Shown here: piece after piece, positions 11,710-12,831 of the stretch
Layout of the letters: each line of letters opens with the position of its first letter
Position numbering within the stretch: position 1 is the stretch's first letter
Source: Chondromyces crocatus
GTDB lineage: Bacteria; Myxococcota_A; Polyangia; Polyangiales; Polyangiaceae
Direction of reading: 5' to 3'
Assembly: GCF_001189295.1 (NCBI RefSeq)
Contig: NZ_CP012159.1
Span: 3,204,973-3,236,972 of the forward strand
Length of the DNA stretch: 32,000 nt
Made by a program: the position numbers and the translations under genes
Notes under the pieces: generated by a model
What the model saw: only the letters and a program-made list of their open reading frames with translations
Told to the model about the DNA's origin: nothing
Database searches by the model: none

Positions 11710-12831
11710 ATGCTCGACAGCAAAGTGAATGTCCTCCTGGACGCCCAATGGGGCAGTTCCGGGAAGGGGAAGTTCTGTCTCTGGCTGGCCGAGCGCCACG
11801 GTGTGACCTTTGCCTCAGCGAGCAACGCGCCGAACGCTGGTCATACGATCGCGCTTCAGGGTGAGCGCTGGGTCTTCAAATGCCTTCCCAGCGCCTCGCT
11901 CGCTCCTTCCGTGAGTACGGTTCTGCTCACGGGAGCGAGTGTGTTTGACGCCGAGCAACTCAGGACCGAGAGTGGCTGGACGCGCGCCGAGGTGCTGATC
12001 CACGAGCGCGCCGTTGTGCTCCAGCCTCGTCACCGGGAGCGCGAGCAAGGGGCAATGAGCCTGCTCGCGATTGCCTCGACCCAGCAAGGCTCGGCCGCTG
12101 CGGCGATCGACAAGATGCTGCGAGAGCCGAACGTGATCGCCGCAACGCACTGGCACGAGCTCGGTCGAGCCCACGTGACCCCGGCGACCGAGTGCAGAAC
12201 GGCCCTGCTCCGGGCGCTGGAGGAGGGCGGTACGGCGCTGCACGAGGTCTCCCAAGGGTACGCGCTGAGCATCGATCACGGCTCACAGTTTCCCCACTGC
12301 ACGAGCCGAAATTGCACCTCGGCGCGCGCTCTCGACGACCTCGGGGTGAGCCCCCGGCTTCTGGGCGACGTCTACCTCAACGTCCGACCCTATCCCATTC
12401 GGGTAGGCAACATCGTCAAGGGCAGCGAGGTGATTGGCTTCTCCGGTGGTTTCTACCCTGACGCACGGGAAACCACCTGGGAAACAGTCGGCCGACTTGC
12501 CGGCATGCCAGAGGACGAGATCAGCAAGCTGCACGAGGCGGAACTCACCACGGTGACGCGGCGGCTCCGGCGGGTTTGCACGTTCAGTCGAATGGGCTTC
12601 GTCGACGCCTGCCGTGCGAATGGTGCAACCAAGATCATCCTCAACTTCGCGCAGTACCTCGACTGGAGCGTCTATCAGCAGCGCGGCGAGGTGAGCATCG
12701 CGGACTTGCCCGAGCGCCTCCGGGACTTTGTCTGCCTGCTTGAGCGCCTGTCCGGATCCCCCGTGGTCGCCATCGGGACCGGTCCCGACCACGACGACGT
12801 GCTTATCCCCTGGAGACGAAATCTCTCATGA
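11710..12831 (+). CDS. purZ: Adenylosuccinate-synthetase (PurA) superfamily protein with a PurZ-like signature
   Basis: 373 aa. LLDAQWGSSGKGKF (PurA has [11 protein letters not shown]). NAPNAGHT (PurA GGHNAGHT). ASTQQGSAAAAIDKM (PurA [14 protein letters not shown]). EVSQGYALSIDHGSQFPHCTSRNCT (PurA [24 protein letters not shown]). YPIRVGN...SGGFYPDARETTW. ELTTVTRRLRRV (PurA [9 protein letters not shown]). Superfamily membership is confident. The PurZ subtype is from remembered signatures. Confidence 0.7.
   Translation: MLDSKVNVLLDAQWGSSGKGKFCLWLAERHGVTFASASNAPNAGHTIALQGERWVFKCLPSASLAPSVSTVLLTGASVFDAEQLRTESGWTRAEVLIHERAVVLQPRHREREQGAMSLLAIASTQQGSAAAAIDKMLREPNVIAATHWHELGRAHVTPATECRTALLRALEEGGTALHEVSQGYALSIDHGSQFPHCTSRNCTSARALDDLGVSPRLLGDVYLNVRPYPIRVGNIVKGSEVIGFSGGFYPDARETTWETVGRLAGMPEDEISKLHEAELTTVTRRLRRVCTFSRMGFVDACRANGATKIILNFAQYLDWSVYQQRGEVSIADLPERLRDFVCLLERLSGSPVVAIGTGPDHDDVLIPWRRNLS

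Follow-up and report, generated by a model that had tools for sequence, protein, structure and literature searches.

Does the gene at positions 11710-12831 (+) of a 32,000-nucleotide stretch of the Chondromyces crocatus chromosome (contig NZ_CP012159.1; the whole stretch is referred to below as the window) encode an ordinary adenylosuccinate synthetase, as both its NCBI and its UniRef label state, or a PurZ-type enzyme that would open the pathway to DNA containing 2-aminoadenine (Z)? We put the probability at roughly 75% that the open reading frame (ORF) encodes a PurZ-type enzyme, a predicted succino-aminodeoxyadenylate synthase that would convert dGMP and aspartate into N6-succino-2-amino-2'-deoxyadenylate (dSMP), the first committed step toward dZTP. 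Judged from its sequence and its setting, we read the gene as a member of a new PurZ subclade, accompanied by a new accessory set, in what appear to be temperate phages of a new host phylum.

The ORF begins with ATG and specifies 373 amino acids (aa). That it is a real coding sequence follows from its GC content by codon position (0.66/0.49/0.79), from its match to the Pfam family Adenylsucc_synt (PF00709, E 4.6e-32), and from a ratio of nonsynonymous to synonymous substitution rates (dN/dS) of 0.135 relative to its orthologue in C. apiculatus. The original prediction for this gene rested on five motif strings, all of which are present in the translated ORF: QWGSSGKGK at residues 13-21, NAPNAGHT at 39-46, STQQGSAAAAIDK at 123-135, FPHCTSRNCT at 194-203, and ELTTVTRRLRR at 278-288. 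The PurA counterparts quoted alongside them likewise agree, upon alignment, with the 432-aa product of E. coli MG1655 purA. An accompanying argument from length (373 aa against about 430) proved uninformative: with archaeal PurA at just 336-341 aa, protein length fails to separate PurZ from cellular PurA. The PurZ signature given with the motifs holds for the phiVC8-like version of the enzyme, but alignment reveals departures at several of its positions both in S-2L PurZ (PSPNAGHT, CTARDVT, EYTTVTKL) and in PurZ0 (GSEAKG, CTSSDA, ERTTVTNK). Common to all aligned PurZ and PurZ0 proteins are the replacement of Asp13 by Ser, a Cys-Thr pair in place of Val-Thr, and the TTVT loop.

Similarity scores place the protein closest to PurZ in each comparison. 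PurZ (NF038379) is the top-scoring NCBIfam model at 194 bits, ahead of archaeal-type PurA (157 bits) and bacterial PurA (115 bits). Among PDB entries, phiVC8 PurZ scores 149 bits over an alignment spanning the full length of the protein, followed by S-2L PurZ (121 bits), the PurZ0 of Gordonia phage Archimedes (88.5 bits), and P. horikoshii PurA (88 bits). Custom profile hidden Markov models (HMMs) gave 224 bits for PurZ (built from four sequences), 113 bits for archaeal PurA (eight sequences), or half the PurZ score, and 95 bits for PurZ0 (two sequences). When the 267 nearest homologues were retrieved, the position equivalent to Asp13 was Ser in all 220 with a parsable P-loop, and Asp in none; for comparison, PMC12884076 reports Ser instead of Asp13 in 100% of 147 phage PurZ proteins, and Asp in 99% of its PurA clade.

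Phylogeny gives the same placement. We built a neighbour-joining tree of 186 sequences over 345 columns with 200 bootstrap replicates, including as references the PurZ proteins of phiVC8, S-2L, ZP6, and an Acinetobacter phage, the PurZ0 proteins of Ghobes and Archimedes, nine archaeal PurA proteins, and E. coli PurA. All Ser-type sequences were monophyletic, to the exclusion of the ten PurA proteins, in 200/200 replicates, and archaeal PurA was itself monophyletic in 200/200; the protein is therefore not nested within cellular PurA, the placement that the original prediction had named as counting against itself. The 373-aa protein grouped with the phiVC8 and S-2L enzymes, apart from PurZ0 and PurA, in 164/200 replicates, and fell within a subclade of sequences from Chondromyces, Sorangium, and related metagenomes (P0001-P0019) in 180/200. 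Its closest relatives are a C. apiculatus protein (84% identity), proteins of two Sorangium strains (about 70-72%), and a set of soil-type metagenome proteins; at 40-50% identity lies a very large metagenomic family, and an exhaustive HMMER scan yielded 310 clusters (at 50% identity) with E <= 1e-30. As an aside, a PurZ-like domain also occurs at the C-terminus of metagenome proteins of 734-1197 aa (P0124, P0128, P0136, P0141, P0142, P0149, P0152, P0153, P0158, P0159, and P0247), with a P-loop parsable as Ser-type in four (P0128, P0142, P0149, and P0152), and these may be fusions of PurZ with another pathway enzyme.

The active site can be compared residue by residue with the list published for S-2L PurZ (PMC8342488), which we transferred by L-INS-i alignment, so that the correspondences below are those of an alignment rather than of a structure. 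Ser16 aligns with S23 of S-2L, S14 of phiVC8, and Asp13 of E. coli PurA (D14 if the initiator Met is counted). In the dGMP pocket, W14-G15-S16 stands in place of S-2L Y21-G22-S23; the residues kept are S16, N42, A43, S123, T124, R138, Q182, C197, T198, R231, and V232 (the last corresponding to S-2L V241), and the departures are A122 for G130 and H196 for Y203. The aspartate loop (T280-T-V-T283) and R287 match S-2L PurZ, as does the adenine-nucleotide pocket, where N312-F313-A-Q315 is identical to N305-F306-A-Q308; at that site PurZ0 and PurA carry S/T-M/K-x-D, the guanine-nucleotide type seen in PurA. All three PurZ-specific substrate contacts of the S-2L enzyme (S23, T273, and Q308) are thereby matched. 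Following the R-V-G motif, the protein also has the SGxxYPD-bearing insertion typical of PurZ, which places Val against C2'. The protein differs from cellular PurA in having Ser16 at the Asp13 site and Gln315 at the site of the GTP-specific Asp333, and in belonging to a separate clade in 200/200 replicates. It differs from PurZ0 in its N-F-A-Q pocket, its GSSGKG P-loop, its HMM scores (95 bits for PurZ0 against 224 for PurZ), and its position outside PurZ0 in 164/200. On the strength of HMM scores, PDB matches, the P-loop Ser, the tree, and the pocket residues, the assignment to the PurZ family made in the original prediction stands as a sequence-based one.

Two further observations concern the active-site region. 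The subclade retains a segment of 13-16 residues, AGMPEDEISKLHEA, as well as a PurA-like GTGPD C-terminus, both unlike phiVC8 and S-2L. More generally, a segment of the form AGMPxxExxxL (residues 264-277 here) precedes the TTVT loop in both the myxobacterial-type and the jumbo-phage-type PurZ clades; it resembles EMPMEEADRLGL of P. horikoshii PurA and is deleted in the phiVC8, S-2L, and PurZ0 enzymes, and could possibly be an ancestral trait, useful for rooting the evolution of PurZ. Separately, PMC12884076 states in one sentence that PurZ0 prefers ATP and PurZ prefers GTP, "respectively". The pocket residues indicate the reverse, with the PurA-type Asp in PurZ0 and, in PurZ, the adenine-binding N-F-x-Q found in S-2L; the order in that sentence was probably swapped.

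The gene occupies the middle of an operon in which a HAD-superfamily phosphatase precedes it and a fusion of an Nmad1-like domain with a dUTPase follows it, and it is translationally coupled to both; from the HAD gene through an 86-aa ORF downstream of the fusion, neighbouring genes either overlap at their start and stop codons or are separated by 2 bp. The HAD gene (11102-11707, +), whose stop codon precedes the start of purZ by 2 bp and which is always found directly upstream of the PurZ gene, encodes a protein resembling PNKP phosphatases and NT5C (phrog_415, 3.8e-18; HAD_PNKP, 1.3e-3; NT5C, 0.029). Its catalytic motifs (D22-x-D24-G-T, T91, K131, and D149-D151) are invariant in all five orthologues. 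A profile search of the PDB returned Pnkp1 only (E 0.023), a single-sequence search of the PDB returned no match, and hhalign gave a 41% probability against the NT5C of a related contig; the links to PNKP-type phosphatases and NT5C deoxynucleotidases are weak.

The start codon of the fusion gene (12828-13592, +) overlaps the purZ stop as ATGA. Its 254-aa product combines an Nmad1-like three-helix domain (residues ~1-90) with a trimeric dUTPase domain (~112-240; Pfam dUTPase, 2.1e-29) that has all five dUTPase motifs. An AlphaFold2 model reached a predicted local distance difference test (pLDDT) score of 86.5 for the whole fusion and 89.9 for the N-terminal domain alone, and in Foldseek searches with it the C-terminal domain matched dUTPases with the canonical trimeric fold. 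For the N-terminal domain, modelled as three long helices, Foldseek against BFVD gave phage models annotated as "nucleotide modification associated domain 1" (TM score 0.6-0.8, probability 1.0), an annotation with which tblastn agrees (E 7e-5 to 1e-3); Foldseek against the PDB yielded only non-significant MazG-like matches (E 2.5), and no Pfam match appeared even at E 10. We also considered MazZ or DUF5664 as the identity of this domain and discarded it, as hhalign comparisons with S-2L MazZ, phiVC8 MazZ, and a PF18909 protein all gave probabilities below 1%. The proposal that the dUTPase domain is a DutZ found no support either: by bit score rather than by a tree, Ghobes DutZ (77 bits) ranks last, behind the 120 other Dut homologues retrieved. 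The full-length fusion forms about 35 clusters, on the same contigs as the myxobacterial-type PurZ clade. The 86-aa ORF (13589-13849, +), which overlaps the fusion stop codon, has no family match; a gene of 84-98 aa, alike by position, stands at the same place in loci L002, L015, and L016.

The module recurs beyond C. crocatus, in C. apiculatus, two Sorangium genomes, and a 43-kb metagenome contig (L016). The C. apiculatus copy is collinear with 3864-15492 of the window and has the same architecture, with no tmRNA gene beside it. In Sorangium sp. So ce1036 and So ce341, the module comprises a repressor, a cro-like gene, the HAD, PurZ, and fusion genes, the small ORF, and an HNH gene; on its left are an integrase, an excisionase, an SSB, and a 5'-3' exonuclease/AAA_24 protein, and on its right an ERCC4 protein, a primase-type protein, large ORFs, and a Mu-type portal (Portal_Mu). 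Judged by this gene content, the Sorangium modules look like parts of complete lambda-like prophages. The metagenome contig has the same layout, with an AAA_25 gene at its right; like the other loci, it showed no DatZ, MazG/DUF550/DUF5664, or DNA_pol_A. On a siphovirus-like contig bearing a more distant homologue (P0040, 49% identity), we found PrimPol/VapE, PolA, a PF18909 dGTP diphosphohydrolase domain, and an NT5C nucleotidase. The triad of HAD, PurZ, and Nmad1-dUTPase genes occurs in no cultured phage of INPHARED, where the best PurZ match is 38-39% identical.

In C. crocatus itself, the surroundings of the operon are those of an integrated element. A tyrosine integrase is encoded at 8210-9286 (-) (Pfam Phage_integrase, 5.9e-37, with SAM-like N-terminal domains; phrog_1, 1.5e-81), next to an 87-aa excisionase-like helix-turn-helix (HTH) protein at 9298-9561 (-) (phrog_66, excisionase/transcriptional regulator, 1.4e-6; phrog_10045, 9e-8); an HTH_17 gene has the excisionase position in the Sorangium prophages. 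A cI-like HTH repressor (10301-10807, -; Pfam HTH_3, 6.8e-6) is divergent from the PurZ operon, in a position and orientation kept in loci L001, L002, L015, and L016. The divergent intergenic region contains, within 75 bp (10848-10922), four of the window's seven copies of CTGTCAG, one of them forming the perfect palindrome CTGTCAGTCTGACAG; going by sequence and location, these repeats are probably the operators of a lysogeny switch. The first ORF of the rightward operon (10965-11105, +, 46 aa) may be cro-like, by position alone, as it occupies the place of a 91-aa gene with a weak HTH_3 match in the Sorangium prophages. Downstream of the 86-aa ORF follow a 117-aa HTH protein (13891-14244, +; Pfam HTH_3, 9.3e-4, below the cut-off) and an AAA_25 (RepA/DnaB-like) replication ATPase (14312-15517, +; Pfam AAA_25, 3.5e-25; phrog_906 and phrog_239, primase/helicase) similar to the helicase portion of primase-helicases from phages.

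The foreign region of lower GC content stops precisely at the 3' end of the transfer-messenger RNA (tmRNA) gene ssrA (15890-16235, -; Rfam RF00023, 126 bits; ARAGORN tag peptide ANDNAYALAA). The 3' end of ssrA is a classic site of island insertion. No duplicate of it that could mark the other attachment (att) site was detected within the window by mismatch patterns, k-mer seeds, or local alignment, and the left border of the island lies outside the window. A second, permuted tmRNA that ARAGORN called at 15506-15983 is unsupported by Rfam. The window thus holds an integrase and excisionase, a repressor switch, and replication genes, and family searches revealed neither a phage structural (virion) gene among its ORFs nor, as said, att repeats; the SSB, exonuclease, terminase, and portal genes of the Sorangium relatives are absent from the element here. 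As to the original notion of a prophage in a myxobacterium, the host part is right (C. crocatus belongs to the Polyangiaceae, in the order Polyangiales of the phylum Myxococcota), but the copy in the window is a reduced integrative element (integrase, excisionase, repressor, operon, and RepA-like ATPase, beside ssrA), with the full prophages being those of Sorangium. This reduced element does not behave as a long-dead relic: between the two Chondromyces species, at synonymous divergence (dS) of about 0.7-1.8, dN/dS is 0.20 for the HAD gene, 0.14 for the fusion, 0.13 for the AAA_25 gene, 0.11 for the repressor, and 0.065 for the integrase, and all ORFs of the C. crocatus element are intact.

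How might such an operon work? The sequences show family membership, a conserved active site, and an operon whose structure is kept among relatives; what the enzymes act on, how the two partner genes contribute, and an actual substitution of Z in DNA we infer by analogy with two known settings. In S-2L, the datZ-mazZ-purZ cluster suffices for incorporation of Z by a non-selective polymerase (PMC8342488, PMC10201439), a Z-specific polymerase being dispensable (PMC10201439), and PurZ itself acts as a dATPase (PMC8342488); in PurZ0 phages, the Dut-fold DutZ is a dATP/dGTP diphosphatase (PMC12884076). Following these precedents, the operon would be derepressed through the cI/cro-type switch after induction or infection. 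The dUTPase-fold domain, the Nmad1-like domain, or both would turn dNTPs into dNMPs, supplying dGMP and removing dATP as DutZ and MazZ do elsewhere. PurZ would join aspartate to dGMP, with ATP or dATP donating the phosphate, and thereby form dSMP, and the HAD phosphatase would drain a deoxynucleotide, plausibly dAMP. Host PurB and host kinases would complete dZTP, which a non-selective host replisome or a phage primase-type enzyme would then incorporate, no Z-specific polymerase being encoded.

Several points weigh against this reading. The score of 194 bits falls short of the curated cut-off of 300 bits for NF038379, even though this is the best-scoring model; evidently the subclade as a whole, judged by sequence, sits below that threshold. 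The tree is a neighbour-joining rather than a maximum-likelihood one, and the assignment is sequence-based for every member of the subclade. Neither DatZ (HD), MazZ/MazG, DUF550/DUF5664, nor a family-A polymerase was found in the window or within 21 kb around the Sorangium genes, and the N-terminal domain of the fusion has no significant similarity by hhalign to MazZ or PF18909 proteins. The dUTPase domain shows no special closeness to Ghobes DutZ, which scores 77 bits against at least 90 bits for ordinary dUTPases. Since a dUTPase is a common possession of temperate phages whose DNA is normal, the link of this domain to Z is positional only. Finally, no virion genes accompany the element in the window, so that C. 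crocatus may offer no genome for Z to modify.

These points have to be set against what else the locus could be. The database names, the PF00709 match, the shortfall against the NCBIfam PurZ cut-off, and the retained PurA-like features (the MPxEE...L segment and the GTGPD C-terminus) would all suit an auxiliary adenylosuccinate synthetase that uses IMP, aspartate, and GTP, comparable to phage copies of PurA that boost the supply of AMP. We nonetheless regard this as highly improbable, for such an enzyme would have to do with Ser at catalytic Asp13 and with Gln315 in place of the guanine-specifying Asp of (T/S)-K/M-x-D, while belonging to a clade apart from archaeal and E. coli PurA in 200/200 replicates and scoring half as well with the archaeal PurA HMM as with the PurZ HMM. 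A different possibility accepts the PurZ assignment and makes it irrelevant to the host, the gene being an unexpressed relic of a dead prophage in C. crocatus. The missing SSB, exonuclease, terminase, and portal genes and the lack of a detectable att duplication in the window speak for it; intact ORFs throughout the element and a dN/dS of 0.07-0.20 at the dS given above, which would not be expected of long-dead genes, speak against it, as does a left border that lies beyond the window, and altogether we hold it to be quite improbable.

A PurZ-fold enzyme might also manipulate nucleotide pools without any Z genome, making a 2-aminoadenine nucleotide or consuming dGMP/dATP in host take-over, superinfection exclusion, or abortive infection, or it might act on another purine monophosphate. 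In favour of this are the absence of the classical partners DatZ, MazZ, and DpoZ, the dATPase activity of S-2L PurZ (PMC8342488), and, in Chondromyces, the purifying selection on the operon, repressor, integrase, and RepA-like gene without virion genes. Yet the same operon occupies the early region of complete-looking prophages with portal genes, and the residues of the pocket for dGMP and aspartate are conserved; moreover, none of nine island proteins matches any PADLOC model, so that we dropped a defence system as an explanation and consider pool manipulation in general unlikely. Also rather unlikely is the idea that the reduced Chondromyces element is a working unit in its own right, either a phage satellite that makes Z-DNA of its own or a host-retained system that, upon derepression, swaps dATP for dZTP in exclusion or abortive infection, which would amount to a chromosome-resident, non-viral use of Z; this idea draws on the element lacking virion genes and yet staying intact, with purifying selection on its genes, in both Chondromyces species. 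We thus continue to favour a PurZ-type enzyme serving a Z pathway in temperate phages.

Taken as such, the system can be compared with those already described. With the PurZ enzymes of phiVC8 and S-2L (PDB 6FM1 and 7ODX), the C. crocatus protein has in common the PurA fold, Ser for Asp13, the dGMP pocket, the TTVT loop, the SGxxYPD insertion, and an N-F-x-Q/N adenine-nucleotide pocket, and it is with them rather than with PurZ0 that it groups. It differs in being only 33-39% identical to them, in belonging to the separate subclade P0001-P0019 (180/200), and in keeping the 13-16-aa PurA-like segment before TTVT and the PurA-like C-terminus. The carriers differ as well, being temperate phages or an integrated element here and lytic-type isolates in the cases described so far. 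As for partners, PurZ has been found with DatZ and MazZ-2 or DUF550(+DUF5664-2) plus DpoZ-2, and PurZ0 with DutZ/DmtZ/DUF5664-1 plus DpoZ-1 (PMC12884076). In place of the DatZ and MazZ (or DUF550) of phiVC8 and S-2L, the present operon has the HAD phosphatase and the Nmad1-dUTPase fusion, and no DpoZ. Like the S-2L datZ-mazZ-purZ cluster, it gathers nucleotide-pool genes compactly around purZ and, as in S-2L, no Z-specific polymerase would be needed (PMC8342488, PMC10201439), but the pool enzymes are of HAD, trimeric dUTPase, and Nmad1-like helical folds.

The PurZ0 systems of Gordonia phages Ghobes and Archimedes and Arthrobacter phage Wayne (PurZ0 with DutZ, DmtZ, and DUF5664; PMC12884076) offer a second comparison. 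They too have a Ser-type, PurA-derived enzyme and a dUTPase-fold protein fused to another nucleotide-metabolism domain, and no HD-type DatZ. Unlike them, the C. crocatus system has an adenine-type donor pocket and GSSGKG (against S/T-M-x-D and GSEAKG in PurZ0), an Nmad1-like rather than an NDT-like DmtZ fusion partner, no PolA-type DpoZ-1, an enzyme outside PurZ0 in 164/200 replicates, and a Dut domain with no special kinship to DutZ. Archaeal short PurA (P. horikoshii, 5K7X) resembles the protein in its size class (~340-370 aa), in deletions shared relative to bacterial PurA, and in the MPxEE..L segment, but has Asp13, Val-Thr, GT/AVT, and the guanine-specific Asp, and forms a clade of its own (200/200).

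Carriage of a PurZ-like gene by a prophage is not wholly new as such, because PurZ-like genes in bacterial genomes have been noted before: the phiVC8 annotation cites a PurZ-like protein of Solibacter usitatus, and viral sequences under bacterial names are mentioned in PMC8342488. Myxococcota, however, are not among the host phyla of the PurZ-encoding isolates that we compared, and a literature search for PurZ together with myxobacteria or temperate phages returned nothing relevant. Z-DNA genomes have so far been confined to a limited set of phages with two accessory sets: PurZ goes with DatZ/MazZ/DpoZ-2, and PurZ0 with DutZ/DmtZ/DpoZ-1. If our reading is true, the Z trait reaches temperate phages of Myxococcota, and a third accessory set would exist in which the HAD phosphatase and the Nmad1-like/dUTPase fusion do without a dedicated polymerase. 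Culturable lysogens (the Sorangium strains and Chondromyces) would then offer one genome alternating between an A-DNA prophage and possibly a Z-DNA virion, so that the handling of the switch between Z and A by integration, induction, and host replication would become directly testable. In practice, "adenylosuccinate synthetase" is the name that genome pipelines now give to members of this subclade, because they escape the curated PurZ model.

A related observation comes from contigs L003, L005, and L006, which are jumbo-phage-like, reach up to 428 kb, and carry Ser-type PurZ-like genes at 10001-11224 (~405 aa, 45-48% identical) with neighbours that include ribonucleotide reductase, Thy1, and pol III delta'-like genes; by sequence, this hints at a Z pathway in phages of very large size as well.

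The remainder of the window falls into two parts. On its left side, the integrase is flanked by a pair of DUF6573 genes, a pair of genes for proteins resembling extracytoplasmic function (ECF) sigma factors, and duplicated lipoprotein-like genes. The ECF-sigma-like ORFs (3628-4173 and 4170-4880, -, with sub-threshold Pfam matches) and the DUF6573 ORFs (4958-5737 and 5947-6495, -) are collinear in C. apiculatus, and they may travel with the element, since DUF6573 genes are also found on the same side of the integrase in both Sorangium prophage loci. Further left, a tandem duplication of about 970 bp (1345-2087 versus 2315-3053, 85-92% identity) has produced the paralogous lipoprotein-like ORFs at 1365-1934 and 2356-2898, and the copies of a 177-bp repeat (43-219 versus 2088-2264) share 93% identity; nowhere in the window is the GC content lower than in this stretch (0.56-0.59). 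To the right of the element, GC rises from ~0.56-0.66 to 0.67-0.73, and from 16360 on the genes look cellular, among them SnoaL, a peptidase, a GDSL lipase, FHA, three AIM24 paralogues, an M48 peptidase, and an ABC1 kinase. The AIM24 paralogues (22835-23662, 23542-24207, and 24231-24926, -) stand beside a two-FHA protein (21059-22654, -) in a cellular array unrelated to PurZ.

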